Assembly: GCA_045837725.1 (NCBI GenBank)
Contig: JBEWZL010000291.1
Location: 1 to 64,000 of the forward strand
Length of the DNA stretch: 64,000 bases
Direction of reading: 5' to 3'
From: Vermamoeba vermiformis
Lineage: Eukaryota
In this document: in pieces, positions 8,406 to 48,623 of the stretch
Numbering within the stretch: position 1 is the stretch's first letter
How the letters are laid out: each line of letters starts with the position of its first letter
Position numbers and translations under genes: made by a program
The notes under the pieces: generated by a model
What the model was told of the DNA's origin: nothing
What the model saw: only the letters and a program-made list of their open reading frames with translations
Database searches by the model: none

Positions 8406-11400
8406 CTAACAATTATTATTCTGTATAATCATAACGACGCACTCGCGAGTGACATTCACTTCGGCTAATTCATAGTCTTCTTGAGCTTCATCTTGAGAAG
8501 ATTTGTCAAAGCGCGACTTTGTTGCATCGAACCACGGTTTGATTAATCGTTTGAGCAGTTCATTGTTCAAGTCGCCCGCTTCACTTTCCAATTCTTTTCT
8601 GAGCCAATCAAGTGCTACTTGACGGTCCATCTCGTCAGCAATTTCCAGCACGTCGAAGAAGTTACCAATCCAAGATATTGCTTGCGCTGCGTGAACGTCA
8701 TCTCCGATTCTCGCCAAGCAACACGCAGCGTTTAATGCGACTGAAAATCTGTCCTTCGGGTGCATACCAGTTTCCCACAGCATCGAGAAGATGTCCACAG
8801 CGTCCGTAAAGTATTTGGGGATCCCTTCGATCATACCAAGTTCATAAAGCAAGAATGCTCGCACCCACAGGGCCATGCTGTCGTCTTTCAATGGCTCCAA
8901 AGTGTTGTTTAAGTCTTGGCAAACAGCGCGTAGCTTCTTTTTTTCTTTTGTTGGCAGTGTTTGATCAAGGTTTTGGAGGTAGCGAATGACCGTATCTGCT
9001 AATAGCACGTGATACTTTCTATTGTTCAGCTGACGCCAATGATTGATAGTTCCTTTAAGCGACTTCCAAACATCTGCAATTGATTAGAATCATATTAGAA
9101 TGAGCAAAGTTCCCCTACCTATTTGACTCGATTGCTTTGGCGATGAAAAGAACAGGAACTTCGTGTAAATGACTTTGTAGATATCTGCGAATTCGGGGTT
9201 CTCAAAGTGAACTTCATCTAAGCGATTGCGTTCGGTTGGCTCTCGATTGCAAATTGTGGTCAAAAAGCTTAAGGTTTGCTCAACTCGATCAAGCTTGTAC
9301 TTCCACAAATCGCGTACGTCAACAAAATGTCGTTGCTCTATTCGTCTGGTCATCCAATCTATTACTTTCCAAAGTCGTTGCAGTGTCGCTTCGATCATTT
9401 GCGTATTATCTTGACCATCCAGGAAGTGTAGCGATAGGGCCAAATCAAAGTACTTGTAGGACCCAACTTTGGCGGCAGCAAACAGCTTCTTGTATTTCAC
9501 TGAATAATGCTTGGCATTGACGACGTTTGACTGCCACTTGTCGCGCTTTTTCGGTGATCCGCGAAGAAGCAGTTGGATTATTTTAGACTTGACTTCGTTG
9601 CCGTCAATAGGTGCTGATAATCCGTCAATCATGCTGTCCAACTGATCGAGGATGCTGTGCAAAAAGGGATTGCAAATGTCGCGACTTCGTAGAACAAAGA
9701 GCATAATCTCGAGGTTGGTAATCAAATCGTTCTCTGGATGGCGGAAGCTTTTAAGCAGACTCGCCTTCTCTGTGGAATATGACTTTTCCAGCTTTTGATA
9801 GATTGTCGAAACTCGCGAATCGCTTTCTGACACGGAGATGAAGTCCAGCAGGAGTAAGCAGTATTCTTCCTCGAAGCTGTCTCGTCGGTTCATCAAGTCC
9901 ATGAAGAATGGTAGCTTTTTGCCAGTACTTGGCAAGCACGCAGCAAACTTCGAAATTGCTTTGTTCAAGCGTTTCAAATCGCTCGGTGACGTCGTAATGA
10001 AGCTAACAATGTCACATTGAGTCTTCGGTGAGATGATGGTATTTTTTGGTAATGCCATTATTGCACGGAGTAAATCACCAAGAAGTCGCATTGTTGTTTG
10101 CACTGGTGCCAAATCAAAGAGGTCCTTCCATGTCTTGCGTTGTTGGGGGTGCCATTTCCACGCGTATGGAGCAATTCTTGGAGGGTTGGCCGTCTTTGTA
10201 AGCGGACCATAGTCATTGTGGTCGCTTTCATGCTTGCACACAAGCGTGTATTTGGGAAAGTAGAGAGAGTAGGCCAGAGACTTTAGGTCTTGCTTGTCAT
10301 CGGCTAAAAAGATGCTCATTTCGTTCGGTTTAGCTACTTCGTCACGGAATTCCATGCATGGAGGAAGGTGATGAAGCATCAACGTGAAGTAGTGCCATGA
10401 TGGTCGCATATCCCATGACATGATCATTGGTGGACCAAGTGGATAGACCAGAAGATCTTTTTCAATGCAGTAAGGTGGTGCGTAAAGGTTGTCCTTGTTC
10501 TGCTTGTCTCTTGCGACTCTATCGTGCAAGCTTATCCATCGAGTGATTTCCAAGTTGTAGGGGCACAAGTTGTGAACTTTGTTGTGGAACGACTTCGAGC
10601 CAAACTGCTTGCCGCCATAAGTCCAAACAATAACTTCATTCGACACTGATCTTTTGTCGACCACTTCTTGGTGACGCATTTCTGTTGCAATCATCATTCC
10701 AGCAAGAACTGCAATAGCTGATCCTGAATAGCCAACACCAGCGATGCGAATGACTTGAGGATTGTTCTCGTCTTTGGACTTGTTAACCCGTGGCTTGATC
10801 ATGTTATCGCCCTTGCCTCGGGTCAACGGATTGTAGAGGCGTCTTGCAATGGATAATGCAGCGTTGTACCATACGACTGGAACGCGATCATCTGTTGTAA
10901 TAGTAGTATGAAACTCTTCTAAATCCGCAGAAACAACATGTGCATAGTCTACAGTGTAGCTAAGTGGCAGGGGACGGATGTACCAATCTTGGGTGTTCCA
11001 AATAATGTTAAAAAATGATGATGAGCTCGGTTTGTCGTCGATCGCGTCGTAATTTGGTTTAAAGTACTTTGCGTCGCAGAGAACCAGTCCTTCAAGCTCC
11101 TTGATTTTTTGGGCGTTCTTCACGAGTGTTTCCCAGTCACTATTTGTTCTTGTCGTCCATTGCTGGAATACATCCTCGTAATTGTGATCTTCAATAGCAC
11201 CTCCTTGAGGAGCTTCATAGTGCGATAGCTGAACTTTTTGTCCATATTCCATTTCTGAACGACCGCGCTGATAAACAAGTGATACACGTGACTGCAACCA
11301 ATCAACAATATTCTGATTGTTCTTCACTTTTCGGTGTTGTCGAATGATCGATATCCAATGGACAATCTGATTCAACACTTGATTTGCAGCATCTATTGTG

Positions 11401-14231
11401 TTGATTGCCTGATTTCTTCGAGCTTCATGATTATTGATTACTGGGTCGCCAGGCATTAGAGGTGGCACAGGAAATTCAGCGCGTCCATCACAAAGAGTTT
11501 GAATAGCTCTTTCGTACCAAATAAAGTGAAGACATTCGTCGCATCCAAGGAACAACGAGCGCAGTAGGCCATAATATGTACCATCAGGGTTCAGCAGTTT
11601 GATGAAGTATTGAATTTTGATGTCGGTGCTGGAAAATTTTTGTTGGTTGAGAGTATCCATTATTTGTGGCAATATATTGGTAATTGTTGTCGCAAATTGC
11701 TCAAAGCCATCATAGTAGCCAAACGAATGCAGAAGTTCGATCACACCAAGAGCGTTCAGAGTGCCATAACCCCAAAGCCTTTTTTCTCGGCATAACGCCA
11801 ACGCTATTACAGCGTAAGCTCGAGGAAGTTGCGCCTTGCATGTCCAAGTGTGTTCTAGCTTTAGAGTCTCTTTTTGTTGGAAAGCTGAGTGGTCGAAGCG
11901 AAACTTCGTCCAGTATTCTTTTCCCGCCTTCTCTAAGTCTTTCAATTCGATGCAACCCATTGATATTGCACGACAGTATTCTCGTGCTTGAAGTTTGTGC
12001 TCGTGCGCACAAGGTGGAGGTGCCCACACACCATCGTCATCAGTGCAGAGAAGCCAACTCTTCATGGAATTGATCAAAGTACGTGAGTTTGCATGTTGAA
12101 CAAGGTAAGAGTTGCTGGTCATGTTCACTTCGACCAACAGATCGGAGATGAGAGCCAAGAACGGAGTGAGAGACTTGGTGCCATCGGGGATGTACACGTC
12201 AAACGATGAGTGAACTTGCTCGTAGTTCTTCTTCTTTGCCGTCAGCTCTTTGATGATGCAGTCTTGAAAAGCAACACCGTGACCAATTCTGCACTTGATT
12301 CCTCGAGCACAAATGCGACGGATTGCCAATGCCATGATGAACATGTGTGCGTACATTGCCTTTGCGATTCGACCTTTCTCTTCGCGAATGACACCTTCGC
12401 CACAATGCAAGCGAATGCCAAGCTTGAAGTCCGATGCAAAATCAAGCCATTCGTCTTGAATGAACGGGCAGTATGGAAATCCAAGCTCTTCAGAAACTAG
12501 ATCCAAGCCAACGACAGTATTCAGAACACTGCGATTATGGTGGTCTTTCTGCCGCAGCATTTGAAATAGGGTAATCAGCGTATGAAGTATGGGCGTGAAA
12601 TCCGAATAGGCTTCAGCATTCAGCGAATGTGACATCGCAGTATTTGGTTCTTTGATTAACAAGTCCAATGCTTCGGTACTTGTAGCTCTCCTTAGCTCTC
12701 CGTCAATTGGAAGCTTGACAAAAGTCCGAGAAATTCCTAGCAGAAATCTGTATTCCATCTTGCCGCCAGTACCCGCAGGTATCGCATTCCAAACGGAGTT
12801 ATGGACCAAGTACTGATAAATCCAAGGAGTAGTCATATCTTTCCAGCCCAAAGAAAATTCTATATAGCTTGTTCTTGATTGCGCGTAGCTCTGCAACACG
12901 TGATTGAGCAGAAGTGTGAGCGTGTATGGATGTTGCTCGTAGATCGGATCACGAAGCTTGAAGCGCATCGGATAGAACTCGGGTGTGAAGCGGCGTCTGA
13001 AGCGATGAACCAAATCAGAGTTCGATGGTGCTGAGCCGTCAACGTTGAGCATCGTGAAGCAGTTGCGAATCTGAGCCAGTGTTGCCTTTGCTTCTAGTTC
13101 TGTCCCTTCCATGAGGTAACACAGATCCGTGTTGGTGATTCCTGATTGATAGTCGAATTGTTGTGCCTTCGCGTTGAAGAACATGTACTTCTTGAGGTAA
13201 CGGGCACTGTTACCCTTTCGGGTCAACGCCAGTCGTGCAATTATTTCGTGAACCACATTGTCTTTTCCAAGGTTCGTCTTAATGTTCATCGATTCACGCA
13301 AGGCATCGATGTCGAACACTACATCAGTTGTGAAATTGAGGGCTGTTTGCCATTCCCAGTGCGGCCCATCCATTGACGTGCGCGAAAGCTTTTTGCACAA
13401 CTTGGGAGACAACGGTAGATTGAGCCATTCTTTGTCGCGGAAAGATTGAAGAATGTTCGCCACCAGGACCTTTGACAAACGGACTGGCCTTATGTTCTCC
13501 CAGTTCAGCATCGTATAAACTTTCCAATCTTGCTCTTGCAAACCAAGATCCAGCCATTTTTTTTTTGCACTCTCTTCCTTGGAGCCCTATTATTTATAAG
13601 AATGGCAACGATTTAACTTAAAATTTTTTGTGTTACATACCACATCTATTTGCTGATCTCCACCCCAGTCACATTCGACGCGAGTTGAAAGGCCCCAGTT
13701 GCGTATGGTAAATGCTTTTGATATTTGGTTATGAAGAACAGTGAACGTAAATGGATCCGAAGTCGGATGAAGTATCGCATGATAAACACCATCACGAAGC
13801 TAAAAATGTATTAGCTCAGTAAGCCTACGGTAGTCGCTCTTACCTCCATGACTGTGGGATCTTCACGGCCGTACTTTGCAATATAGCTTCCTTCTTTGTC
13901 CGGGGTCTTCAATATAATCTCGAGGGTTGGAAACTCGCGAAAGCACAACGGACCGTACCACTCCAATGACTTCAGTGGTCTATCGTTGTTAGAGAACAAG
14001 TACTTTCGCATGATTTGATCGATCCAGAACGAGTGATCTCCCATTCCCATGAAGTGGGTGTGAAGATCGGCGGTAATTAGCTCCGAATCCAAATACTCGA
14101 GCAATTGAGCGGCTTTTTTCTGGTCCTTTACCCATGCATCTCGTTTGCATTAACATTAGATACTGCTCTTAGTAATTAAGAGAGTACTTACCTCGTGCCA
14201 CCCTATCATCAGGTGGCCCATCACGATTCAT
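8406..14231 (-). CDS. Large protein: adenosine/AMP-deaminase-like amidohydrolase domain, degenerate Lipase_3-like alpha/beta-hydrolase domain, helical/TPR-like C-terminus
   Basis: Deaminase motifs: DLHTHFMG, YIEFS, VVGLDLVSEE, RLHCGEG, RIGHG, VEVNMTSN, LCTDDDG. Lipase-like: IAGVGYSGSAIAVLAG…VWTYGGKQFG…ITRWISLHDRV. Start exon MNRDGPPDD at 14231 splices to the HTH-motif exon. Main exon is ~4.4 kb. Confidence 0.8.
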
Positions 14232-22801: not shown

Positions 22802-24856
22802 TTAATTTACCGTGGCCTCGTCACTAATCACTTGCACAGGACCTTGCGGAGTTTTCGTGCGGAGGATAATGATGCATTGGCCGTCGCGCATTTTAATGTC
22901 TTCAGGCCTAATTTTCGTTTTATACAAATTGGCGTTCGGCACTTTGATCGTACGTTCAAATTGACCGCCGGTCCGTTCTCTTGAGAGCACAGCCAAGCTA
23001 TCGGCACCCCCTCCGAATTCTTCAAGAATATTTTGATGGATCAGATTCAGATCTCGTTGGCCTTTAAAACTAAATTAGAATTGATTTTTTAAAATTGTTC
23101 GTATTACAGCACATACCCCTCAGAACGATCGTTCGAGTCGTATTATCGTACTCGACACTCAACTGAGTGCCTGAATTAGGTCTGCTACTGAACCCAGGTA
23201 TATCAACAGCAATAATCAGATTTTGATTTGCTTCGTTTGATTCGGGTTGCAGGACATCGAACTACGAAGAGTGTAAGTAACAAATGTTAAATATTAATAA
23301 TTTTTGTACTTACTAAAGGCTCAAAGCCAGGAGCAGTTCTAACCCAAATAAAGTGACCATCAAAGTGCACGTCAGATTTTCGCAGTCTCAAGTTGCCTTG
23401 CACCAGAAGCACGTTTTCGTGGTGGATCTCGTCTCGCCGTGGCAAATCATCAATTTTTCTGGTCCAATCTGTACACGTCATATTAATAAAACATTGGCGA
23501 GATAGTTAACTTGATTTACCATAACCGAATGCAAGTCTCGGATTTTCAATGACCGGCGCGTCATTATTATTATTATTGTTATTATTGTTCATTTCAAGGT
23601 CAATATCTTCAACTACCACTTCAGCTGGATTAGCGCCAATGTCAATTCTTTGGAACGAGACTGTTTGCACTTCAGCGAGGTACTCCTCGAGGCAGTTCTT
23701 CGCGTTCGTCAGAATCATGTCGGTCAATGATTTTCTGTCGCCTTGTGCTTGCGTCAACAACTTGGAACGAAGCCAGTCAAACACCTTGTTATTCCAGTTT
23801 GACCCGAATTCCGTGGCGTGATTGGCAAGGCAGACGTGATAAATGTTCGGTTTGACCGCGTGTGAATTGGAATTTTCTCCTTTAATTCGTAAAGTCATCA
23901 CTGGCACATCCGGCGCAGTTTTTTCGTAACAAGTGCGACCGTCGTAACTACCCAGCACAAATTTCTGTACAAAAGAATAAGAATCGATATACATATATAT
24001 AAAGCAATGAATTAATGTCTTGCTTACCGACCAGCGCTCATAAGTTTCTTCGGCGGTGTTCGCGTCTTTGTAATTATGAATTACGTAGATCTGAGTCGGA
24101 AGCTTGCGAAGCTGTTGAACTCGGTGCAAGATAGTATCGAGCAACTCTTGGTCGTTGAAAGTGAGTTCATTGAACACCAAAAGAATTACGTCGGAGAGCG
24201 CGATCTGAAGGTCGGAGATGAAGTACTCGAGTGCTTTTTTGTTGGCCATTGTAGTGCGCCAATCAGGTTGACTCAACAATCCCGCAACAGCTTTAACATC
24301 GTTAATAATTGGACGAATATATAGTGCGAAATAACTTACATCCTCGAAGCGGACTGTTTGTTCCGGATGTGTCCAAGTAAATCACGTTTGAGTTGTCGTT
24401 ATCCTTGGGACATAAGAAGCTCAAACCTTTCGTTTGAATTTTACTACCACATGGCAACAATGTTTCCGCGAGTTGATTTATAATAAAAGTTTTTCCGCGA
24501 TCGAATCTGCCCATAATCGAAACAATATTTGGGGGGTCTTTAAAATATTGATCGATTACTCGGCATAGCTCTCTATTCGGATTTTGACTCGCTCGTTCAC
24601 GAAGCCACGGCGAAATCGATACAGGCCATTGTAAACTTAGTCCGTCGCAGATGTTGTTAATGTCAATGACCAGATCGTAGTCCGTGGACTTTCTTTCTTC
24701 TTCTGAACTATCAGACGATTCTTCTTCGATATCGTCCTGCTCTTGGGCGACGTTGTTTTCCAGCACCTCGACAGCAGGTGGGTTTTCATGCTGAACCAAC
24801 TCGACGTCATTTCGTACTGGATTGTCGTTTCGTGCGCGAGTGAGTACGTTGCCCAT
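22802..24856 (-). CDS. P-loop GTPase (TRAFAC-like) with C-terminal HSP20/alpha-crystallin-like domain and an N-myristoylation-like start
   Basis: MGNVLT start; G1 MGRFDRGKT, G2 QTKGLS, G3 LDTSG, G4-like VIHNYKD; C-terminal SRERTGGQFERTIKVP…MRDGQCIIIL. Confidence 0.75.
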
Positions 24857-25131
24857 TGGTGCTGCTATAATAAAGATTTGGTTAGATGTTATGGACAAAA
24901 AAATCGTTTTTAAGCTTTCTTAAAGAATAGAATCCTAGCAATTCTTCGTTAATATTATTCTTTTAGATTCACATAGAATACACGCACTTTTTGTGTCTGG
25001 ATCGAACCAAAATTAAATTTAATTCACTTACTCCGCTAGCGGGTCGAACAAGGCCTTGTACGGGCAGCCTACATTTTTGACTGTCACAGTTTTCCGCCGT
25101 ATTGCTTCGGTTTCAGGATATTGGCACGGTA

Positions 25132-25727
25132 AGAATCAGCCATACTTGTCGCTTCTTGTTAAGAATTAATAAAAGTAAGTAAGATTAATAAAATTAAGAG
25201 ATTTTTGTCGGGCAATATTATTGGCAATCTACCTTCTTAAAACCCGAATATTATAATTTGGAATAATTGGGCGCTTATAATAATTTAATCAATAAATATT
25301 TATTTTTCCTTTTCTTTTCGAATCAACCTACCACTTCGAACTGGGCAGCTGCTACGCATGCTTGCAAACCTAATTGGACGAATAACTATTTATCATTCTT
25401 CAAATGGGACTTTTGGGTGTCAGTTGTGGTGCTGAATTCGCAATTTTATCAAAGCAACTCAGATGCGATTTTAGAATTGAAGCTCTCTCTCGTGCGATTG
25501 TCCTCAAAACCTTATTCTGTCGTAGAATGCTATCTGTATTGCAGATCAACGCATTATGAATGAATTTGCACGATGAGAGATTGATAAATTGAGTCAACTC
25601 CGTATCCGAACTCGATCTCCATTCTTTCTCGTGCAAAATGCTTTTATCCGCCGCCTCTCGTCATATCATATGATATATCAGTTATTTATGCAATTTGGTC
25701 ATAATCGCACAATGAGGAGGAGCGTCC
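25132..25727 (+). repeat. ~600-bp dispersed direct repeat, copy 1
   Basis: Colinear with 30577-31155; shared blocks include ATTGGCAATCTACCTTCTTA, TTAGAATTGAAGCTCTCTCTCGTGC and ATCCGAACTCGATCTCCATTCTTTCTCGTGCAAA. Confidence 0.95.
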
Positions 25728-25844: not shown

Positions 25845-28800
25845 TCAGTCCAGACTCCCGTCGGTAGTACTAGCAGATTCAATGAGAGATTCATCCTCAG
25901 CACTCGAGTCTGCGTCTCTATGAGAAGGCCATACAGACAACCAATGATTGTTGTTAACATAGGCCAACACCACAGTCTCGTCGTGCCTTTTTTCGTGAGG
26001 ACTGAACTTGAACGGTAACAATTCACTGAAGTTATTGGCAACGTAGTACTCGAGATCAACCCTTTGAACGAACAATTAAAACCTTTGTGTGCGACAGGGA
26101 CCAAGTCTGACTTACCCAAACATAATGGCAGCAACCATTGCAAACTCGGATCCGCACCAACTTTTCGGCGTTTTATGCTCCGTTGCCCATTTTCTGGCCT
26201 TCTCTTCGTTGTCAAAGTAGGGAGCAAGTTCATCGTACGTAGAAATCAACATCCAGTTCTTCTTCGCAAATTCACAGATCTCTTCTCTAAGATCGTCCTG
26301 GTCTCCGTCAAAGAGCAACATCTCTTTGAGATGATCCAACAAAGCGTACATGAGGCAGTCACCGTCGGCTAGATTATCTTGCACTCGGAGATGTCGTCGT
26401 TTCAACTCTTGCACGGTACTTTCATAGTTGGAAAAGGCTTGAATTGCCGGGGTGACGAACGACGATGAAAGAGTGACGAGATTGCCCAACGACATTTGTG
26501 AGTTGACAGGCTCAACTGAGTCAATCTCCGGAGCACGCTTCATCACCTCCGTTACTATATTGACCGTTAGTAAGTCACTCACATTACCAAATGGTGAACG
26601 TACTTTGACCTTTCTTAAATCTCGTTTTCGGTGACCAAGTGAACAGGTAGTTCTGCAACTGAACGAAGCCACAATCACGAAAAATTTTGGCAACATGTTG
26701 CTCGCGCTTCTTGTAGTGATCGATCCACTTTGCTGCTCGTAGCGTAGTTTTTGGGTTGGCTTTTGAACTACCTTTCTTTGAGCGAACTTCTCCAAGGTTT
26801 GTCGGAATTGTCATTCCGTTCAAAAAGTCATTGGGCGGGCAAAATGACAAGTTGTACAGCGCGTCAGTGCGGTAGATGACAGGTCCTTGAATAGCATAGC
26901 CACCAGGTGGAAGCACGCCCATGTACATCGGCCACTTTTTGAAGTTGTGGCGGTACGTGTCAATGTTGACCTTGCATGAGATAGCCACTAATGATTGAAG
27001 GACTGCTAGTTGATACGCCAACTGCTTGACAACGTCCTCTAATATCGGTAGTTGTGCTTGCGGAAAAGAATCAACGAAGCAGGGTTGTTTCTGCAAAAAG
27101 TGAACTAACGTCTCCAAGTGTGACACTTCCAACTTTCCTTGATCTTTTTCAAGCTTGATATTTTTCAAGAAGGCAAGTGCGGTGATGTATGGCGTGCTGT
27201 CGTCAATGTCCATTCTTCTTACGGCCAACATCAGCAACTTTTCGTTCTCTTTGATGACCTCTAGCGACTTCTGCCACAGCTCGGTTTCAAGTTCAATTAA
27301 GAATGATTGGGTCCACATCAAGGCACGGGCTGGTGTGCATTGACGCAATCGAAGTACCAACAACTTGAACTCCGAGAAGGCTTCAACATTGTCAGGCACT
27401 CGTATGATGTACGGAATCTTGAACTGGGTTGCTATGAGGCGGATGGATTCGAAGTAAATGTCGAGTTCACTGTTGTCAGGCACAACGCTGAAAATGATGT
27501 CTAACTTGCTTGGGAGACACAACTGGGAAACTTTTTCGTAGTGCGCACGATACATGTCAAGCTGTGACTCTTCTACAACGAGTGTGATCAAATGCTCCAT
27601 GTCACCTTCCAAGCACTCAAAGTCAATTCTTTTCTGTCGTACTAGGCACCCGTGCTCATCAAAGGCTTTAGAGGGAATGAATAGGCAAAGCCCTCCCTTG
27701 CCTTGATGATTGCGCATCTTGTTCGCAATGTTCTCGAGCAAGCCTTTGACACGAGGTGACAGCACCATAGTGACTTGCTTTAACTTGACATCTCGCTCGA
27801 AGGTAATCACATCGTTCTCTTTGCTAGTCGTCCTAACTTCTTGGAGCTAAAAGTCAATTAGTAAGGGTTTACAGGGAACATTGTCTACGTACCTGCAGAA
27901 CTTCGCCTTTAAAAGCAGGTGCTTGGCTGGAAGCTTTCTGATAGATCTCGCCAATGATGGAGTCCATGACTGTTTGATGTTCATTTCCAAACAGCCCAGT
28001 AAGCGGATTCTCAGCACTTTGTCGACTGATCTTCTTAGCTACCATATCAAGTCGGTAATTGGCGTTTTGGAACCACTCCAATAGAATCTTTCTCCATTGG
28101 GCAATCAGAGACTTAGTAGTCTCGAGAACACCTTTTGGAAGACTGATCTCTTTGGCCAGTGAGTCGGTGATCTGCTGACACACTTGCCTGAACGTGTCTT
28201 TGCATATTTCAGGAATGCCGTAGCTCTTCACTTTGTCTCGTATCAGTTGCACAAGTCGATCGAGATGCTCAGCGCTTCGTCGTTTGATCCACGAAGAGAT
28301 CAGATCTGTGAGCTTCATATCGGACAGCTCGTTTGAATGGATAGGCACGACACAGCTTTGAGAGTATATGGCGTCCATTTGAGCAATTGAGAATTCGAGT
28401 AAGGGGTTCTCTGTTGCGCCTTTTGTGACACCAAGTTTCTTCATCAGATCTTGCAAGTAACGTTTTAATAGTGTCTCGCCGTGGCCTCTAATCCGTCTTA
28501 GCAATGCCAGTGTCTTTTTCAAGCATAGGTTACTCATGGATTCAATGGCAGTTGCACGAGATTGCTGATCCATCGACACTTTGGAGTAGTAGTTCTGAGC
28601 CAACTTCTCCAGCCTTGAAACCAAGTCCTGAAGTTCAGAATCTATCACAGGATCGAACTCCGCGTTGAGCTTGCCTTCGTACACGTTGACCTTGTCCTTG
28701 ATGCCCTTGGATGCCTTGCCGTCAGTAGTTCCCATGACGTTAATAGCGAACAACAAGCTGCATGCTCCACGAACTATAACACGCACTGAGTTGACACGAA

Positions 28801-30514
28801 CGCCATCGAGAATCTTGGCAAACAGGCTTTTGCGTGCCTCTGCTGATGTAAGCATGGTCTCAGGATGAATGATGATGACACGTGCTGCAATGTCACCAAG
28901 GAGCGAAAGTCGCATGATCGGGTCGTAGTCAGTCAAAAGGTCTGTGTCGTCTGCTGCAGCCATAATCATTTCCATTTGTCTGTCTTCTTCTTCTTGCAGA
29001 GTAAGTTGACTGTCCGCCTTAGTGACCACACCAATCACAGGCAGTCCACGTGCCGGGTTATCAAACACGCCTTGACGCTCCAAGAACTTCAAAGACTCAG
29101 CTGTAAGCAACGTCGATTTGGGCAGCATGATCATGTCAGCGGTGCTAATCTCCTTCTTGACAAGTCCAGCTTGAAAAGACGATGATTCGGCCAAGCCCAT
29201 TGTGTCCACCAGCTCCAACTTCTCGGGCATGTCCCACGGTCCGTGGATCTCCATGTGGTCGATGGCGAGAACGATGTCAGCTGGCACGGAGGCATAGTTG
29301 AAGTATCTGCTCCAGTTACTAACTTCTCCAATTGACTTGAGCCTGCGGACTACGTTTGATTCTCCAAACTTCAACGTGACATTGAGCTGCTCTAAAAACA
29401 GTTCATCGCGTGTCCCACCTCTCTCTTGATAGGTCGCCAAAGGGCAAGTCACAGCAAAGATGGTAAACTCTTGTGAATCACTTCGTTTCAGATGGTAGTT
29501 GAAACATGTTAGCGAAGTCACTTTGTGTTGCACATCGCGATTATCGAGTGGCAGCTTGCCCCAGTCATTGATCCGTTCAGCCCTTGGCAGCAAGGCAATC
29601 TTGTTGGCAGCCACACTTTTGCCGCTTCCAGGCTCGCCGATCAAGCAGATCTTTGGTTCGTGATCTTTCATTTCACGAGCGATCTTGATTAAATCTTTGT
29701 TTCGCTAGCAAAGAAATACATTAATACAATGAATGTTATATACAGTGCCTAATTAAGAGTACTTACACCGTCCAAAAAAGTGCGCTGTGACTGATGCACT
29801 TGCGGTGACTCGATAATTGTTTCACACAATTTGTTGCACTCGTTAACCAAGCCATGAACTTCGTCTGCATTAACGAACACACGGTCGCAAAACTTGAAGT
29901 CCCGTTGAACTTTTTGCTTCTTTTGCGGCGGAGAATCCAATTCTGCATGAATTTCTTGTAAATATTATTTCTAGGCAATTCGCAACTAAAATCTATTTAC
30001 CTTGGTCACTTGAACTTGATCGCCTTTTCTTTTGCTGACTGCCTTCAAAATTCTGAAACGAATCCGGATCAATTTCTTCAAGTACGGCGAGCAGAAACCA
30101 ATTCTTGAATGCAGAATTATGCTTTGATTTAACAATATCAAGCAGCTTGAGCACTCCTTGTACGCTAACAAAGGAGCCCTTGTGGCTTGAGATTTTTGTT
30201 GAGCAATTTGACGGCAGTGCTTGTAGGTGTTGTCGAATATTCTTTAGATCGAGGATCTTCTCGAGATCTGGGACGTAGAAGCCAAGGCATTGACCGCTCC
30301 CCTTAATTTTCAGGAGAGTGTGCTTTGACAGGTTCAACGGCGGCGTGAGTGTTTCTGAAATGAAGTTGGTGACTGTTGTCATCCTCGTGTAAATTCCATA
30401 CGTATTCTTCGCCGCTTTTGTTGCTGATATTTTGAAATCTCGCGCAAATTTGTTCCCGCTCACAATCTTAAGTTGCATCCGAATCACCAAGTTGCTGCAC
30501 TCAATCGAATCCAT
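25845..30514 (-). CDS. Multidomain protein: Bro-N-like, dynamin-like GTPase, GREB1/TAGT-like glycosyltransferase fold, OTU deubiquitinase
   Basis: Six exons splice in frame. Bro-N-like: FYVPDLEKILDLKNIR…FVSVQGVLKLL…AFKNWF…VLEEI. GTPase: GEPGSGKS, LVDTMG, VTKAD. GT-like: LFIPSK…LVVEESQLDMY…IRVPDNVEAF. OTU: DGDCLMYAL…LR…W…NHWLSV. Confidence 0.8.
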
Positions 30515-30576
30515 TTTCAGGTTCAGAAAATTGCTGCAAAATGGATAGTGATTGACATTGGAATTAGGGACAAGAA

Positions 30577-31155
30577 AGAGTCAGCCATAATTGTCACTTC
30601 TAGTTACGAATTAATAAAAGTAATTATGGTTAAGAGATGCGTTATAGTATTATTGGCAATCTACCTTCTTAGAACCCAGATATTATAATTGAAAATAATT
30701 GGGTCTTAATAATAATTTAATCACGAATAAATATTTTTTCCTTCGAATCACCTACCACACTTCGATCTGGGCAGCTCCGATGCATCTTGCAAACCCTGAT
30801 TGGGTACATATATTTAACATTCCTCAAATGGGACATGAGTGCCAGTTGTGGTGCTGAATACGCAAGTTTGTGAAAACGACTTGATGCGGATTTTAGAATT
30901 GAAGCTCTCTCTCGTGCAATTGTCCTCAAAAACGTATAATGATATAGAATGCTATATGTATTGCAGATTCCCGTATTATGAATGAATTTGCACGATGAGG
31001 ATTTGATAAATTGAGTCAACTCAAAATCCGAACTCGATCTCCATTCTTTCTCGTGCAAAGTGCTTTATCCGCTGCTACTCGCCGTATCATATGATAGATT
31101 AACTAATTATGAAATTTGGTCAAAATAGCACGATGAGGAGGCGCATGTCGCGTCC
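30577..31155 (+). repeat. ~600-bp dispersed direct repeat, copy 2
   Basis: Same orientation as 25132-25727; diverged, with substitutions and small indels. Confidence 0.95.
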
Positions 31156-38958: not shown

Positions 38959-41900
38959 CTAAAGGTCGCCAAACAATGAATGAAGGTCTGAATAGTTGTA
39001 GTCACGGATCATGTCACGCAATGTCAACAGATTGTGAAGCAACTTCGAAGGCTTGCTGGCGAACAAGCGAGAGTGATTCAGCACTGTGGTGATTAATTTG
39101 ATCATTGATGCGTTGTGAGGTCCTGATGGAGGCACCAAATCGTCACGTTCTTCGACGAAACCGTTGTGTTTGTCAAGTACTGTTGCACGACACAACGCGT
39201 TCCATGTCTCGTGCCACTTGTCAGAAGACAACTCTATTCCTGCAATAGTTTCATCGATGAAGTCCATCTTGTCAGGAACGACACTAAGAAGCATCATGAG
39301 TGCCGTCTTCTCTTGTTTGGAATAGCTCAAGTTGCCGTTGAGAAGTTTGAGCAGTGTGATGCATCGATGCTCGTCGTTGTTCGTGCCATGCATGTAGCGT
39401 AGATGATGAAACTCTGCTATTGAATTATTTGACTTGAGGAACGGGATCAACTCATTTGCTTCGAAGAGCGACACGAGAAGGAAGTGCGTCTTGGGGCCGT
39501 TGAATTTGATGACAACATCGATTGGTCGAATGTAGTTGGACAGCATGTGTGACTTCACTGTTGATAAGAAGTTCTTCGTAACATAGATGTTGTTGAGTAT
39601 ATCTGCCCTTTCGAACGCTCTGTTATTGCTCCATTCAGCGTCCAAAATTGTACCGAAAAATATGTGCTTAATTGGCAAAACAGGCAAAGCAGATATGGCA
39701 TCAAAGTGCGTGACTCGATCAAACGGCCAAGATCCCTCCTCGCTAGGTTCGACAAGGGGAGGTAGCTCTCGTTGTCGCTCCTCTTCGACTTCTTGTTGGA
39801 GTTCTCGTTCGTACTCTTCATTCACACTGCCAGAAATACGAGTTATCTTGCCAGTAGGAACAAGTTTGCAAGCGTGATTGATCAGATTGTCATACAGAGG
39901 ACGTGCTTTCTCGGTGAGCTGATATTCTTGACCAATCTCTCGACCCAACAACTCGCTCTTCGTTCTTGTTCCATGTTGATTGATGTGATCTTTCACGTTC
40001 ACGGACTTCAACGGAATGCCGTACATGTCTTCTGTTGCAAGTACCTCTTTTAACACCACCGCTTTGATGATATCTGTAGGCGTTATTGATGGGCTGGAGT
40101 GCAGCAAGTCCAATGCCATCGCCGCTGCATAGTGATGGAAGCCTTGTGATGCATATGTGATGATCGCTTCTTCTTGTGCTTTGATTGTGTTCTCAACGAC
40201 CCATTCGAGGATATGAACACTCGTTATTGCGTCCTCAGTGAGTTCTTGGTTGTGAGCCATTTGTTGAATCTTCATCGTCACTTCTGATGTGCCCCAGAAT
40301 GTCACATTGTGCAGTCCAACAACAAGCTTTCTCATGCGCATACAAGCTTGCATCAGTTTGTCTTTTGTGATACCAGTTGCAACCGTAACGAATGCATGAG
40401 ACTTTGTTGGGAATGGCAAGTCAGTGCCTCGAGTGTGAATGTCATCCAAGTACGTGAAGCACGAGTGCTCAAGCGGTCGACTGCTGCTCAGCTGAGTGCT
40501 GTTGCCATGTCTATCGATCAATGCCAATCTGTTGGACTCATCAAAGAAGATGCCTGTCTGAAAGCGAGGACAGATCTCGAGCACTTTCACAACAACTTCA
40601 CGGTTTGACATGCCTTCGATCAGTGCTCCGCTATCAATCAGCACATTCCAGTTGTCGTGACTGCACATCTCTTGTAAGATTCTCTCCGACTCGAACTCTT
40701 TTGGCAATGACTTGTATTGACGATTGTTGAACTTTTCGTTGGTCAGAACGTCAATCATTTTGCCGTTCGTCGACTCCACTGATGGAAGCGCCACTTGTCT
40801 GACGTACAGCGGAAGAGTGTGTTTGGTGTCATCAGTTCCCGAGAAGCCAACAACCTGTTCACACTAGTAAGTACGAGAAGTATGTATAATGGATGAGCAG
40901 CAACCTACCTTATCAGCGCTCTTTGCAAGGTCCCAAGAGTTTGCAATGATCTTTTCTGGGAATGACCGCGTGCCCAATGGAAGCACGAAGTTGTCAAGAT
41001 AGTATGCAATAACTTCGTAGTTACGACCAAAGTACAGTGTCAAATGCTGTGCAGGTATTAGTAAGTTACTCTTCAATGAGACGGTCTACTTACCTCCATC
41101 AAATTGACGTTCTCAACGTTCACTGCTTCGATCTTCTCAAGCAAAGTGACATACTTCGCGTTCATAATTGGCCTCGAGATCATGTACCATGTGCGATAGA
41201 TCTCTCGCTGTTCGTTGATTCCTTTCGTTTTCAAGTACACAAAGCATGATTTGACAGCTTCTGAGTCGATTCCAGCGCTATGTGCCAATATCGTGAGTGT
41301 GATCGCCATGTCTGGTTGACCGAACTCCACTCCATCTGCTGGCGTGTCTTTGCCTCTGAACGGAACTGCCATCGGTACTGCCCTACGTTTGTCGATACCA
41401 TAGTGAATGCGATGACGCTTCATCAGCGATGCCTTGAGCACTTCAAACGATAGCAATCCACGAAGCACAAACACAGGTACTCTGATTGACTTGTCAAGCA
41501 CCAACTTGTTCTTGAATGCATCGCACTTCTTGTCGCCGTCAGGAGTATCAGGATAGTTGTTCAGCACGAAGTCCTCAACTTGCTTCAACTCGTCAGGAGA
41601 CTTTCCTTTTGCAATCCGTAGCCAAACAGGATCAACTTGAAAGACACTAAATAGACTTGCTCTGAATGCCTCGAAGAAGTCTTCGTTGATTAAGCGAATG
41701 ACGGGAAGTACGTGCGGCTCTCCTGCACCAGGATGAAAGATGAAGTGTGCCGTTGAGGCTTTCATTACGTTATATAGCTTCTCGAGCTTTGATGGTCCGT
41801 CGCAACTGCTGTCAAGATATCTGCCTGGTACAGCATCCCTGTTCATTTGATACAAGTTGGCCATGAAGATGCATCGAACAAGTGCCAAATGAACGTTCCA

Positions 41901-44900
41901 TCGCGAGCTGCCTCCTTCAATCAACTGTTGATCACCAAGTGTGTAGATCAGTTGGTACTTGTGACGAAGAATCTCATCGCTCTCGTCAAGCAGTTCGAGA
42001 ATTGGTGCATCGATGATGCCTATGTCATATAATTAGCCATAGTTAGATCGAAACACACCATTACCTTTGAAATTCTCAACTGCCAAGCTGTTGTTTTGCT
42101 TAGGGTACGTGGCCTGCCTTAAGACTTCTCTGTATTTGAGTTGCATGCTCAAGCGATGCTCTGGAGTTGACAATATGATACCGCCATGAAGCTTGCATTC
42201 TTCGAATTGCCTTCGCAACTCATCCATTGCTTGAGGTGTTAAGGGCACATTGCGTTGAAATGGAAACAAATAGATTCGCTTTCCAAGCATATTGCCAAGT
42301 GCGAGTTTAAGATAGTTGTGAACTTCGTGAAATAGTGACGGGAGTACGTTGACCCGAACGAGAGTTTGTCCGTTTGCCAAAACGCTGCACAAGATCGGAA
42401 CAATCACTTTCGACTTGCCTTCGCCCATGTTCAACTGAAGGACAATGTTCCTTTCTTCGAGAAACTTCGTGGCAATCTCCACTTGGATTGATCGAATGCA
42501 CACTCGTCGCTCCATCTCGAAGATGAGCCATTCAGGGTGTTGACGCGGACTCCACTCTCGCCTATCTGACAGCTCTGCGAACAGTTGCGATTCAAATCCT
42601 TGGCGATCGCCCTCATCGGTAAGCGAGTGCAAGTCGTTCAAGAGCTCAATGATCCGTGCCAACTTGACGAAATGAACCTGAAGGATTGCGAAACGCAACG
42701 CTAGTTCATGCAAAACATTGGCATCTTGGAGACAAGGGTTGATCGCATGATATTGATAGCCATTCTTGAGGAGCGAAGGAATTATGCGAGGATGAGGTCT
42801 TGTTAGTAAATTCGTCATCTTCCATAGGTTTAGCAGTGGAAGGTCAACGCTCATCAAGACCCGCACAATCTCTGACCAGGTTCTGTTGCGCTTGTTGATA
42901 ATTTCATCCTTCAAATTGACGTAATTGTCTAAATTCATGTCAATCTTTGGCGTTGGTTGCTGTGAATAAATGTGCTTTTGGTAGCTATCTTTCAGCTCGT
43001 TGACAATCTTAGACTGAATTTCTGCGCTTCCTTCGATTGACTGAATTTGTAATGGAAAGTCAACTGGCTTTGCCTCTCCTTCGTAAACGTTGAGAAGCTC
43101 TTGAATTTCATCTAGTTTGTCATTCAGTGCCCTTCTTTCTGCTGCCTTCGTTCTATCTTTTGCTATTGAACTTAGTCGCTCTAATATCGCCGATTCTTCT
43201 AATTTAAGCGCGTTAATATCTACTGACGGCTTAACCTGTGAACTGGCAAATTCGTAAGACGCTCCAAGCCTTTGCTCGAAGAATTCCACTCCGCTACAGA
43301 ACTTATTCAGCGGTTCTAACTCCAAGTCCATGACATCAAGATTGATTGCTGGCCATGTAAACGTCAATTGCCGAGAAGGGCTGAACGAAACTGTCTCTTT
43401 CAACGTAAAGGACGAAGACTTGACATTGATGGGTCTGGCAAGCTCATCAAGATAGTCCCATAATAACCGCCCGAGTAACCGAGTGTTGTGCAAATTTTTC
43501 AGCCTCTTCAAAAACCTGGTTCGCCACGTAACGTTGAACGAACGGAAGTAGTCCTCTTTCTCTTCAAATGATGACGAAGGACAACCATTTTCGTCCAAAT
43601 AATTGCTAGAGTAGATTTGCCAAGCTGTTTCCTTGTTCTGCGATGTGTCATCTCGAGGAATTAGTTGTCTGAAATCATCCTCATTGACAATTCCATAGCA
43701 GCGAATAGAACTGCTCTCCAGTAAGCGGCGGTCGGGACGCACGAGGTTTGGCGTTGTCATTGTGCAATAGATACACTGCAAAAGCACCAATTCAGCCGAA
43801 TTTTTTAGCAAGGCATTGTGAGCCAAGAAGGTCAAATACGTCAGCACTTCATCGGGTTTTCGGTGCTCCAGCTGCTTGATAAACCAGAAAAACATTTGTT
43901 CGTTGCCAGCCTGTCCCAAAGCCTGCCATTCTGAAGGAAGATTGCCTACAAACGGCGATATCGTTACTTCCTGAATATTGCATTAGTACTCTAAAATGCC
44001 TTGATTTAATTTCCGTTTGAAACCTACCCTATTGAATAAGCGTCTAATCGGGAATGAGGATGGCAACGTTTCTTTCGAAAAAAATATTGTCGGAACGTTG
44101 GTGAAGTATTTGCCAGGCGAGTAACTCTTAAGGACTAGATATCTCTTAAGATAACGTTCAATGCTCTCATCCAACGTTGCTCCGGCAGGTAAAAGGTGCT
44201 TTGTCTTGAAATACTTCTTCGCTTGGTCGGCAATGAAATCTTCATCTATTTTGATTATCTTGGCTTCACCTTGCGGGGTTAAGAATAACAGCCTCGTTGA
44301 TTCAGAATAGAGATGATATACAAGGAGCTTGATAGAGTAAACCATCGGCGAGTATTCCTTCAACTTCAGAAGATCTTTCATCGCCTCTACCTCTGCGACA
44401 GAATATACATTGTTCTGCCAGCATTGATGAAGCAAATAGAGTGCTTGTTGAAGCCCAGTAGTCTGAGTTAAGGGATCTATGGTGTATGAATACTTCGCGT
44501 AAATATGTGCCAGCACTAAGCGCGACAATGTCGTTGATGGTATCAAGCGCTGTTGTACGTCGTCAAATTCGTACGGATATATTTGGTCTTCTCTGGAAAT
44601 CAAGACGATGGGTAACTTCGTGCTGTGGGCGCTTGCAGGTTGAATATACAGGTATCTGGAGAAGAGTGGAAACGTTGGTACCACTTGGACATCAGCGAGT
44701 TTGTAGCCCGGGTAGTTGTCTGAAATGATTTCTCCGCTCTCTTTGATCGTAAACGTCAAATTGAACTTCATATAGGTTACTTGGCACTCTTTAGGTGAAG
44801 ATCTTGTGCATAGTATGTTCTCCACTTTGTCAATTCTGTACAGAACCTTCATTAAGCTGCACAACCGGTCGTCTTTGGCATTCAGCAGCTGATTTCTCTT

Positions 44901-47900
44901 GCCCTTGTCATTTACGTAGCACTCGCCCGTGTCAAGCTTCATCCAATAGCTAAAGTCAGTTCGTCTGAAATCTGGTGGACGAAATTCGATGACGCCGTTC
45001 TCGAAATCAATCCAGTGTGCCATTTCATTAACGAGTATCGTTGGTAGGTTCGAACGTGCCAAGAAATTTCGTGGTAGCAGTGTGAGCTTTCTTCCATCTT
45101 CGTGCTGTTCTTGAATAAAAGGAAACTGCTCTAAGCTCTTCCAAAAGCCAAACTTGAACGTGCGCTGACCAAAGGGCAATGAAACATACTCGTTGTTGAC
45201 GCGTTGCACGATGAAATTTGTGTTCTTCATCACTTCTTGGTATAGAGGTGACTGAACTATAATCGATGGAAGCTCTGATACTGTGAACCCCTCTCGAAGA
45301 ATCAAACCAGATATTGGGTTGACCGAGTACGGGCCGCTCGAATACCAATCTGTAAATCGACCATCCTCGCGCGTCATTCTTCTCCACGATAAATCTTCTT
45401 GCCCGACATCAACTCCGTCTTTGATTAAATAATAAAGCAGAGCAGGATCTCTTGTTATTAGCTCGTGAATGCGACTTGTATTGTTGAATGCATGAGCGTC
45501 GACTATCATGAGCAAGCCATCAATGTCAGCTGTAATGTTATTTCCAACAACGCTTTTTTGTCGCTGCAATGCCGATCGATAGCTTAAGTATTGTCCTGTA
45601 ACTTCGCGTGATGCAAGGAGCAGGTACGCGTAAAACTGAATGAGTAGCAATCTCCATTTAAGGACGAGCTCCGGTCTAGTGATGAACTCTCTGATCAGCT
45701 CCTCGACTTCTTTGGTCCATTCTATTATTACTGCACGTGCTTTGATTAAAAGATTATCGAACTCTTGTTCCAGTCCAAACTGTGCAACAAATGTCGAAAT
45801 CTCGATGATGAGTCGTAATGTAGCGTGCGATTCCCAGTTCTGGTGGGTGGTGGATAATTTCGCTGACAAAACTTGATAGAGCTCGGTTAGCCAGGTTTCA
45901 TCAAACAAATCCTGCTTCCAGCTCCACTTGCACGCTGCTTCGGGTGAGATCGGACCTACTTCATACAACACTCGTTGAGCCAAGATAAGGAAGTCGCTGT
46001 TGTTAATTTGTTTGTCTGACAGTGACTTCAGCGTCATGACGAGTTCTCTGATCTGCAAGTTGGGCGCTGCACGGACTCTTCCGAACGATATGAACTCGCT
46101 CTTTGTCATCGTTGCTGGCATTTTGTGTTGAGATGCCAGAACCTCGTTCTCGGTATGGTTTGAGTCGGCCATCCAAGGCAAGTTTGCAAGAGGTCCATTC
46201 AATTGGTATTGGTACTTAGTTACATCAAATTTGAATGGATCCGATTCGTCTAAGCTGCTTCCGCCCAGTGAAACCAAAGCATTGAAGTCGGGATAAACTA
46301 TGTCAACTGTGAACGTAGAATGCTTTTTGAAATGAGAATCCGTCGCCAGTGGCTTTCGTGTGCTGACTAATGATACCTTCGAAGAGTGTCTCTTCAGCTG
46401 AAGCCCGTTGTCTAACGCCCAGTTCACACAGTCGACCGTTGTTAGAGTAGCACTACCAAATTCGCTCGAATGCAACTTGTATGCATTAGTGATTACTGAT
46501 CCATAAGCGATTATGATTTGTGGTTGGGTTGTGAAGAACATGACTTGTTTGGCGAGCTCATCCTTCGCAGGCAGCGGATTAACCACTTGAGTCGATGTTT
46601 GCATCAGCCTCTTCAGTTCGAGGCAACGATCACAATGTTTTATGACACGCTGCTTTTCGTTTTTCTCGCACTTGCACGCCTCATCCTGTAGCGTTGAGTA
46701 CTGTTGTTGGATTTGATCTAACTTGTTTTGGCGCTCAATCTTCCTTTTTCTCTCATTTTCTCGCTCTACGGCCAAGAGGCTCTTCATGTCCTCTTTTGAG
46801 TCGAAATACTTTTGAGCAAAATCTTGCGTTACTGAAGGGCACTCGTAGTCGAATAGACCGTTGTAGCCCAATAATCGCTTGCGCTCAATTAGAGCAGCTG
46901 CTGTCTCCATTAGAAAGCGTTCTCTGAAAGTGAGACTCTCCAAAAGATCAACGGGAAGTGCCATGCCAACATTCGTAAACAAGTCCGGCCATCGTACACG
47001 AGCAATGCAATCGACCAAAGCAGTCAAACACCACACTGCCAAGACCTCTCGACTGCGTCGCTCGGCTGACGTCTTCTTCACTTTGGCAACTAATGCTGTG
47101 TAGGCATCTGATAAGCTCCGTAGATTGCTAGCCCAGGCATCAAGATCCCCGTCTACATGTTGTGCACGCACGAGATTGAAGAGATGATAGATGAAGGACT
47201 CGGTTCCTTGCAGCATTAGAGAGGCCGTGAACATCGCCAACTCGGGCTTCTGTTTTGTAACAATGACCAGCGCCCGTTCTATTTCGTGCGTGGTGGAATT
47301 AAGCAACGCAAAGGCTGAGCTCGGGTTGATGGATGTTACAAACTCTGCCGGATTGACAATTGACGAAAACTCCTCTTTCAAGAAGTTGATCTCAACGTTC
47401 GAGCCAGCTTTCAGCGACCGCAGTATTTCTGGGGCCGGAAGAGCAAACCTGCCTAAAACGAGCGTTAAATTGGTCCTATGCTGATTAATTGCCTATTTAC
47501 CAGATATGCCCTGCACATCAATTTTGCTCGGCAATCGCTCCTTCAGCATACGCTGCTTGAGGACTTGCGGATAGAAATCATCAATTCGCTGCTGCATAGG
47601 CTGGCACTTTGTCGTAATGAACGTGATGACTTTCTCTGCCGCACTGTTCAGTGCTAGTAGCTTTCGTGATCTTAGGCCAATACGCTGCAGCATCTCCGCC
47701 TGCACTGCCGCACGATCTTGCTCTATCATAACCTCTTTGTGGCTCAACCTGTTGTATTGCAAAGCGAGCCAAGTCTTGAAGCCCAACACCAGGATTTTGT
47801 ATTGCTCCAACGAGAAACCACCCCATCTCTGAGCCAGAGCAGTTGCAAACCGGATGGAGTTCCAGTGGATAGATCTGCGCCAGGGCACGCCCTGACCGAC

Positions 47901-48623
47901 GAAGTTCTTGAGGGATCCAACAGTCTTCAGAGCATCGAGCGATGTTTCCACGAGAATGGTTTCTTTTGATAGTAATGGCAGTAGCCACTCGATAATGTAC
48001 GTGGGTGTCGGTGGTTTTCTATTATCGGGAAGCTGACTTGCGCGGCTTTTCCCCAACGGATACGCACCAGAAAACTCGTTGAGCTGCAGGTCAGCCATAT
48101 AATGTAACCATCTGTCGGTAATTCTAGCCTTCTCCACTCTAAATATTGCTTTAGGCAGAGCGATACGCCACGTGCGTGTGAATCCATCATCTTCTACAGG
48201 GTAGACCGAGGAATAGTTAGTGCGACGTAGCTCCATGGGCACAAATAGCAAGTGACCTGCCGACTCTTTGTCGGCGAACACCACAATGTCACATGAGTGG
48301 TACGGAAAGTGCAACACGATGAAGCTGCCTAAGAACGCGGTTAATTGGATCGAGAAGCAATGAGATCTTGAGATACTTACTCTCTGATAACGAATTTATG
48401 GCACGTCGAGTTTTAGCGCAGACATCCTTTAACGAATTAGTAGCATTTCGGTAAATGTCCAAAGTGCTCTGCCAGCTGATTCGCAAAGAGGTGACAAAAA
48501 GTGGATCTAATCCGGGCAGTTTTGTGATGAAACTTGATGCTAGGTAAGCAATGAATGACTCTATGTATATAGAGAAGCGAGCATCTTTGGCATAGTTTGG
48601 TTTGTTGAAGAGCGGAAATACAT
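38959..48623 (-). CDS. Giant DUF3638/DUF3645-family protein (SF2-helicase-like P-loop core), ~3,000 aa
   Basis: HPEWLIFEME, QLNMGEGKS, TPEHRLS, LDESDEIL, AVPFRGKDTP…EFGQPD, GFSGTDD, LIDSGALI, YLDDIHTRGTDL, KDKLMQACMRMRKL, EEYERELQQEVEEERQ. The start codon is uncertain; extra 5' exons to ~48780 are possible. Confidence 0.85.

Follow-up and report, generated by a model that had tools for sequence, protein, structure and literature searches.

The large GTPases of the Mx, GBP and IRG families are core effectors of cell-autonomous immunity, and OTU proteases as well as Bro-N domains recur in the conflict between hosts and viruses. Bro-N is mainly a domain of phages and large DNA viruses, and the known Bro-N proteins are small phage or large-DNA-virus proteins that carry various C-terminal DNA-binding or nuclease modules. 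Here, we describe a gene that seems to combine all three elements in one polypeptide. It lies on the minus strand of a stretch of 64,000 nucleotides of the eukaryote Vermamoeba vermiformis (GenBank assembly GCA_045837725.1, contig JBEWZL010000291.1, positions 1 to 64,000; called the window throughout), and its predicted product consists, in this order, of a Bro-N domain, a basic linker that resembles a nuclear localisation signal (NLS), a large GTPase with a long extension, a region that we call module X, and an OTU protease domain (see Table 1). We read this modular order as that of a DNA-tethered, GTP-driven OTU protease, a model to which we assign a probability of roughly 60%. Open-access papers and preprints yielded no description of a Bro-N/GTPase/OTU fusion or of module X; the architecture is new, and its function we infer.

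The gene model was built by a script that joined six long open frames, located between positions 30580 and 25845 of the minus strand, through introns of 46, 62, 46, 49 and 54 nt. All five introns begin with GT and end with AG, their donors are of the GTAAGT/GTACGT type, and two of them contain branch sites similar to TACTAAC/TACTAAT. The first-pass annotation of this DNA had claimed that in-frame splicing joins all four of its domain regions, and this has held: the joined exons form a single frame from an ATG at 30514 to one terminal stop that ends at 25845, and both ends agree exactly with those of that annotation. Likewise, all motifs that it had named are present, i. e. G1, G3 and G4 of the GTPase, DGDC and NNNHW of the OTU domain, the PPQKKQK stretch and two PDN motifs. 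The maximal hydropathy over 19 residues is 1.58 for the whole protein, and there is no clear transmembrane segment. Sequence searches of the PDB with exons 1, 3, 4 and 5 had no match at E <= 1 or 10.

Transcript evidence came from run X1, seven short contigs from a relative with 97-99% identity to the window; that this run is RNA was initially a guess. One of the contigs joins position 29704 to position 29768 and thus lacks precisely the predicted intron 2 (29705-29766); at 29767 it differs from the window by a synonymous change. Since this contig is spliced, it must be derived from RNA, and the splice between exons 2 and 3 ties the linker that follows Bro-N to the GTPase exon. The remaining six contigs are confined to exons 3 and 4. 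Of the 19 differences between the window and the X1 contigs, 17 are synonymous changes at third positions and two are non-synonymous, a strong sign that purifying selection acts in the predicted frame. Three raw-read RNA runs that carry the species label (X6-X8) gave 0, 2 and 0 reads, which does not amount to a test of expression. Taken together, we regard the locus as one expressed and selectively constrained eukaryotic gene.

Some details of the 5' part deserve mention. Intron 1 has a second acceptor at 29942 that is also in frame and could instead yield a protein of 1,466 amino acids. The public open reading frame (ORF) calls P0007 and P0008, two orthologous fragments, both read on as "...QGK" beyond exon 1, just as the window does into intron 1, so the position of the GGTAAA donor of this intron appears to be conserved among the relatives. 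Upstream of the gene, an ATG at the end of the repeat described below starts an ORF of about 21 codons (30520-30585, minus strand) that terminates shortly ahead of the main ATG, and an acceptor-like site, TTTTGCAG, lies about 20 nt 5' of the main ATG; an intron in the 5' untranslated region or an additional upstream exon is therefore possible.

For the N-terminus, Bro-N is the best reading and very probably the correct one. The Pfam profile (PF02498, 96 positions, gathering score 25.6 bits) matches exon 1 of the window with 14.3 bits (E 0.063), P0007 (67% identity) with 22.1 bits (E 2.4e-4, profile positions 10-93) and P0008 (56% identity) with 25.0 bits (E 2.9e-5, positions 33-95), and it is the sole Pfam family that matches either fragment. 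In the Atlas, which is based on a protein language model, exon 1 lies closest to a Bro-N cluster (0.92, 169 shared features), P22_AR_N is listed as well, nine of the ten best family-bearing matches share the family or clan of the Bro-N cluster, and the neighbours are viral or bacterial. The PHROG of the anti-repressor Ant matches exon 1 with E 0.17. The Bro-N call of the first-pass annotation is thus upheld by profile matches in all three family members, two of them just below the gathering score, and by the nearest Atlas cluster. As in the phage Ant proteins, the domain extends in the orthologous fragments over nearly the whole model, but here it is part of an intron-bearing eukaryotic gene and has a GTPase and a protease as fusion partners, and its scores stay just under the cut-off. 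The basic cluster that follows the domain is also found in P0007 and P0008, and it makes nuclear targeting plausible.

The identity of the central part as a large GTPase is safe. Its Pfam matches, AAA_22 and MMR_HSR1 at E values of about 0.01-0.02, cover only the P-loop, and searches of the PDB by sequence, NCBIfam and PADLOC with exon 3 returned nothing beyond noise at the P-loop; moreover, the search for homologues of the GTPase exon found none among longer proteins. More can be learned from the distant homologue P0004, a protein of 1,040 amino acids that was detected through module X. P0004 has its G1 motif at residue 78, DTPG at residue 220 and NIKD at residue 285, and the spacing of G1-G3 and G3-G4 is 142 and 65 residues as compared to 144 and 61 residues in the window protein. 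P0004 passes the Pfam threshold for Dynamin_N (28.9 bits, cut-off 27) and matches LeoBC of PADLOC weakly (E 0.0022). A direct alignment of the two GTPase domains also covers a stretch "LPL..D..H.VT", a candidate for switch I. A G4 motif of the form TKxD is characteristic of the dynamin/Mx and IRG GTPases. With dynamin, Mx, IRG and LeoBC proteins, the window protein shares G1 as GxxxxGKS, G3 as DxxG and G4 as TKxD, an insert of considerable length between G1 and G3, and a long non-catalytic extension past the GTPase domain. This extension of about 340 residues, by analogy with dynamin presumably a helical stalk, matched no family in Pfam, the PDB, NCBIfam or PADLOC. Unlike members of the dynamin superfamily, the window protein adds an N-terminal Bro-N domain as well as C-terminal module X and OTU domains, none of which, to our knowledge, is known in dynamins, and its hydropathy gives no sign of membrane binding. 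On balance, we lean towards a dynamin-like GTPase.

At the C-terminus, the Asp, Cys and His residues of an OTU protease, which the first-pass annotation had reported as intact, are indeed found in canonical order and spacing, with DGDC and NNNHW separated by the middle segment "W.GSEFAMVAA"; the motifs were compared with what we take to be the OTU consensus. The Pfam profile (PF02338, 128 positions, gathering score 23.3 bits) matches exon 5 alone with 16.3 bits (E 0.015, positions 2-69), and the rest of the domain is encoded by exon 6. The score is below the threshold because intron 5 splits the domain and exon 5 was scanned alone. Thus, the domain shares with OTU deubiquitinases the sequence of Asp-x-x-Cys, W...E..A..A and NHW, with about 120 residues from Cys to His, and differs from them in its place at the C-terminus of a GTPase fusion; very probably, it is an OTU protease, and by its motifs one that looks active. 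A match of exon 5 to DpdH (E 0.0013) in the NCBIfam and PADLOC scans was taken as chance.

Module X is a real yet very rare family. It consists of an alpha/beta N-terminal half, a bundle of helices that comprises about 130 residues, and a conserved C-terminal block. An exhaustive HMMER search with exon 4 among 1.84 billion cluster representatives found four proteins at E <= 0.001, i. e. P0001 (73% identity), P0002 (34%), P0003 (a fragment of 111 amino acids) and P0004 (30% over 150 residues; E 5.6e-4 against 1.84e9 proteins), and a profile search retrieved two more sequences, the close orthologue P0006 and the ORF of the window itself. No relatives of module X were detected in the JGI metagenomes or in IMG/VR (loci search with alignment A4), and the tblastn search of phage records gave nothing better than E = 5. 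In the N-terminal half, the invariant positions form the pattern F, H, E-x-S-Q, F..P and C..ARA, i. e. F56, H85, E92-x-S94-Q95, F119, P123, F142, P145, E159-F160 and C170-x-x-A-R-A of alignment A5. Conservation recurs close to the C-terminus, where a second block contains LPPxGxAIQ ... RDxGFxQLQ, with I319, R326, A329, G352, K366 and G393-F394 conserved in alignment A3.

The homologues also tell which parts of the protein belong together. In P0004, the GTPase and module X are encoded in one uninterrupted ORF, residues 839-1043 of the window protein align with residues 682-878 of P0004, and the protein ends after module X. P0002 (661 amino acids) contains module X and then a further C-terminal region, again in a single ORF. 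Thus, two lineages that are very distant from each other both have module X behind a dynamin-type GTPase, and the GTPase together with module X is the conserved core, with Bro-N and OTU as accretions documented only in this lineage. The public fragments P0007, which corresponds to the Bro-N exon, and P0006, which corresponds to the exon of module X, are both listed with 7,293 bases as the length of their longest contig, as would be expected if they came from a single locus of a relative. No paralogues of the gene were found within the window.

How might such a protein work? In the model that we favour, Bro-N would tether the protein to foreign DNA or to chromatin, and the binding and hydrolysis of GTP would cause it to assemble or to switch its conformation, as is the case for other large GTPases. 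This step could position or license the OTU domain to free neighbouring proteins of ubiquitin or a ubiquitin-like modifier, and module X, as the family-defining partner of the GTPase, would bind a ligand or regulate the assembly. The nuclear localisation, the DNA sensing and the partly viral origin that the first-pass annotation had proposed are, like this model, conjectural. The presence of a GBP-like GTPase gene next door that shares the upstream repeat of about 600 bp suggests a role in conflict or immunity rather than a housekeeping function. With its DNA-binding head, its large GTPase and its deubiquitinase in one polypeptide, such a protein would offer a compact and testable model of a link between nucleotide-driven assembly and the editing of ubiquitin at DNA. 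Module X is of interest in itself, with four clusters among 1.84 billion representatives and yet a fixed place after a dynamin-type GTPase.

Several observations weigh against this model and have to be set beside it. With the window's own sequence, all four domain calls stay below the Pfam gathering score, and the Bro-N matches of all three family members are below the cut-off. Dynamin_N (PF00350) is not found in exon 3 of the window at E <= 1 in Pfam, and the alignment with the GTPase of P0004 reaches only E 0.047, around the P-loop, so that the term dynamin-like, which the first-pass annotation had used, is based on motifs and on transitivity: the intact G1, G3 and G4 motifs and the dynamin-type features have stood. 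P0004 has neither Bro-N nor OTU, and the C-terminus of P0002 was rejected as an OTU domain (z = 2.1; 12 of 300 shuffled sequences scored at least as high), which leaves this lineage as the only one with a documented four-domain fusion. RNA backs one of the five junctions, that of intron 2. Finally, the data show the gene structure, transcription with one spliced junction, purifying selection, intact motifs and a conserved order of GTPase and module X, whereas binding, catalysis, localisation and biological role, and with them the mechanism, are what we infer.

A first group of alternatives departs from the view of module X as a ligand-binding or regulatory partner of the GTPase. The first-pass annotation had assigned this region to the GREB1/TAGT family, the least secure of its calls. 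In the published description of GREB1, its glycosyltransferase domain is related to phage and kinetoplastid DNA-base glycosyltransferases and is preceded by an inactive superfamily 2 (SF2) helicase (PMC7968844), and phage TET-glycosyltransferase clusters are the subject of PMC8256090. If module X were a GT-A glycosyltransferase of this family, either active or devoid of the DXD motif, the protein would be a chromatin effector that glycosylates DNA or proteins, which we consider possible, if rather doubtful. TAGT (PF20691, 205 positions, gathering score 27.5 bits) is indeed the best Pfam match of exon 4 (16.7 bits, E 0.0072) and matches P0006 similarly (16.8 bits, E 0.0067), but these matches cover only profile positions 24-58, i. 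e. 35 positions, and are seen in two of the five members that bear the region (the window and P0006), being absent from P0001, P0002 and P0004. The Atlas clusters nearest to exon 4 (0.94) are phage clusters without a Pfam family, one of them automatically named "glycosyltransferase family protein", and the nearest cluster that bears a Pfam family has Glycos_transf_2 in 30% of its members; however, 138 features are shared, below the approximately 170 typical of matches within a family. Moreover, PHROGs gave no match at E <= 1, and none was obtained in NCBIfam, PADLOC or the PDB sequence search; the PDB profile searches with alignments A5 and A4 had best E values of 0.11 (a Rossmann-superfamily protein) and 0.44, and neither protein is a glycosyltransferase. 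The structure models give a similar picture. With the model of the full exon, 7 of the 47 Foldseek matches listed are GT-A enzymes of the GT2 type (ArnC, TarS, GtrB, PcManGT; E 0.011-0.06), but these are at noise level, amid matches to RIG-I and ATPases. With the model of the N-terminal half, no glycosyltransferase is among the 42 PDB or 50 BFVD matches listed, and the best match is a prolidase N-domain (VIA, Z 4.6). For the alpha/beta half, the fold searches with both models had no match at E <= 0.001 or Z >= 5, and the helical bundle (residues 178-300) reached Z values of up to 9.3, a range that is uninformative for helical models. Both AlphaFold models are of low confidence (full exon 4: mean predicted local distance difference test, pLDDT, 52.8, six sequences; 205 N-terminal residues: pLDDT 57.0 with region 58-83 below 50, predicted template-modelling score, pTM, 0.52, five sequences) and disagree on the arrangement of the N-terminal region. 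Because these models are too poor for a fair test, the claim of GREB1/TAGT identity, for which no significant profile or fold match was obtained, is unsupported rather than refuted. The succession of LFIPS, VVEESQxD, VVPDN, a helix and IPYII as strand-helix-strand presumably resembles the N-terminal half of GT2-like or GT-A enzymes, a likeness seen by eye and not computed, and it keeps the glycosyltransferase hypothesis alive. That annotation had also noted PDN where an acidic pair is expected. Two PDN motifs are present (VVPDN at residues 959-963, RVPDN at 987-991), and the statement presumes a GT-A alignment. In our own reading of alignment A5, the position expected for DXD is occupied by PDN in the window, P0001 and P0006, by APN in P0002 and by SQS in P0004. 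If it was derived from a GT-A domain, module X thus seems to lack the conserved metal-binding acidic pair, and without a DXD motif a ligand-binding or regulatory role is more likely than that of an active glycosyltransferase; at most, module X might be a divergent GT-A-like nucleotide-sugar-binding domain without DXD. It is similar to GREB1/TAGT in the short sub-threshold match over one strand-helix-strand element and in that the candidate domain is in both proteins the C-terminal partner of an NTPase-like region, and differs in the missing DXD-like acidic motif, in the helical bundle that splits it, and in the lack of structural support. The N-terminal half of module X could instead have another alpha/beta fold such as that of a PD-(D/E)xK nuclease, which would combine the DNA-binding head with a DNA-acting effector. 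The N-half model has a beta-meander (residues 53-92) and, after it, a helix and a strand, with the invariant E92 and H85 in or beside that strand; 21 of the 42 PDB matches listed by Foldseek are endonucleases (EndoMS, TnsA, bunyaviral cap-snatching, MspJI, T7 endonuclease I, XisH), which we take to be of the PD-(D/E)xK type, and bunyaviral L-protein N-termini and phage endonucleases recur among the BFVD matches listed. However, all endonuclease matches have E >= 0.057, a probability of <= 0.35 and a template-modelling (TM) score of <= 0.23 with a model of pLDDT 57, the full-length model arranges the same region differently, the invariant motif is E-x-S-Q rather than (D/E)-x-K, and no nuclease family matches module X in Pfam, PADLOC or NCBIfam. 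We therefore hold a nuclease to be quite improbable. It is similarly a long shot that the GTPase and module X represent an ancient, very sparsely distributed eukaryotic sensor-effector pair in which module X, as a DXD-less descendant of phage-type DNA-base glycosyltransferases, would recognise or modify hypermodified or foreign DNA, and that this lineage gained the viral Bro-N and the OTU domain to form a nuclear, GTP-switched effector against viruses or transposons that would be of an undescribed kind.

Two further explanations concern the locus as a whole rather than module X. The long frame could be an artefact of joining ORFs, with two or more separate genes, for example for Bro-N, for the GTPase with module X and for OTU. 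Such a view could invoke the four junctions without a transcript and the public gene calls of the relatives, which are single-exon fragments. The latter look like intron-blind ORF calls, however, because each of them starts at an internal methionine or enters intron sequence. Moreover, the exons are separated throughout by canonical introns of 46-62 nt whose removal restores the frame, none of exons 2-6 has a plausible start context of its own, the junction between the Bro-N linker and the GTPase is spliced in the transcript contig, and both the GTPase with module X and module X with a C-terminal extension are single ORFs in the distant homologues. Separate genes are, in our view, very unlikely. 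The single gene, in turn, could have been captured or endogenised from a virus or a mobile element instead of being a long-standing gene of the host. This would be in agreement with the chiefly phage and viral distribution of Bro-N and its viral or bacterial Atlas neighbours, with the two direct repeat copies of about 600 bp that bracket the coding sequence at a distance of 5.4 kb, and with the fragment of a piggyBac-like transposase in the window. The repeat can be explained equally well as a duplicated promoter common to the neighbouring GTPase gene, though, and the five spliceosomal introns with host-like signals, the purifying selection, the orthologues at 56-78% identity in other assemblies, and the failure to find a relative in IMG/VR or phage records argue against such an origin, which makes capture unlikely. 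We therefore retain the DNA-tethered, GTP-driven OTU protease, encoded by a single gene of the host, as our reading of the locus.

Table 1. Positions of the gene, its predicted domains and motifs, and neighbouring features in the window.
Feature	Position	Strand	Basis and remarks
Whole coding sequence	25845..30514	-	six open frames joined via five GT..AG introns; 4,413 nt, 1,470 amino acids
Exons 1-6	30514-30001, 29954-29767, 29704-27893, 27846-26604, 26554-26116, 26061-25845	-	reading frames and splice signals
Bro-N-like DNA-binding domain, about residues 60-150	30065..30337	-	Pfam, PHROG, Atlas
Basic NLS-like linker (KKRR 162-165, PPQKKQK 180-186), spans intron 1	29911..30031	-	spliced translation
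P-loop GTPase domain	28907..29704	-	motif inspection; Pfam matches at P-loop level only
G1 GEPGSGKS, residues 257-264	29615-29638	-	motif
Candidate G2 HKVTS	29513-29527	-	motif
G3 DTMG, residues 401-404	29195-29206	-	motif
G4 TKAD, residues 462-465	29012-29023	-	motif
Extension of about 340 residues between GTPase and module X, presumed helical stalk	27893..28909	-	no family match
Module X (exon 4), residues 839-1252, about 410 amino acids	26605..27846	-	homologues, alignments A3 and A5
OTU cysteine protease domain, putative, split by intron 5 (26062-26115)	25893..26414	-	Pfam on exon 5, motifs
OTU Asp/Cys motif DGDC, residues 1316-1319	26355-26366	-	spliced translation
OTU His motif NNNHW, residues 1435-1439	25941-25955	-	spliced translation
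Direct repeat, upstream copy, about 600 bp	30576..31144	.	just 5' of the ATG of the gene
Direct repeat, second copy	25131-25723	.	between the stop of the gene and the GBP-like gene, upstream of the latter
Adjacent GBP-type GTPase gene, N-terminus and asparagine run	23509-24919	-	Pfam GBP 22.5 bits, cut-off 21.1
ORF run of 300, 1169, 649, 319 and 634 amino acids with DUF6606, DUF3638 (167.9 bits) and DUF3645	38962-48395	-	Pfam
Open frame of 1,498 amino acids, sole Pfam match lipase_3 (class-3 lipase)	9093-13586	-	23.5 bits, cut-off 22
Fragment resembling the C-terminal end of a piggyBac-type (DDE_Tnp_1_7) transposase	5358-5912	+	E 2.5e-4, just under cut-off

The surroundings of the gene are those of a eukaryotic sequence with short spliceosomal introns and a content of guanine and cytosine of about 42%. 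The two large-GTPase genes lie side by side on the same strand, the GBP-like gene being next downstream. The copies of the repeat are 80-85% identical and in direct orientation, and there are only two of them in the window; they may represent a duplicated promoter common to the two GTPase genes or a dispersed element, and Rfam had no match to the locus or to the repeat. Farther away, the run of ORFs with DUF6606, DUF3638 and DUF3645 is probably one giant gene, and this gene is perhaps the other deubiquitinase fusion that the first-pass annotation had mentioned. A gene for a GMC oxidoreductase is also located within the window.

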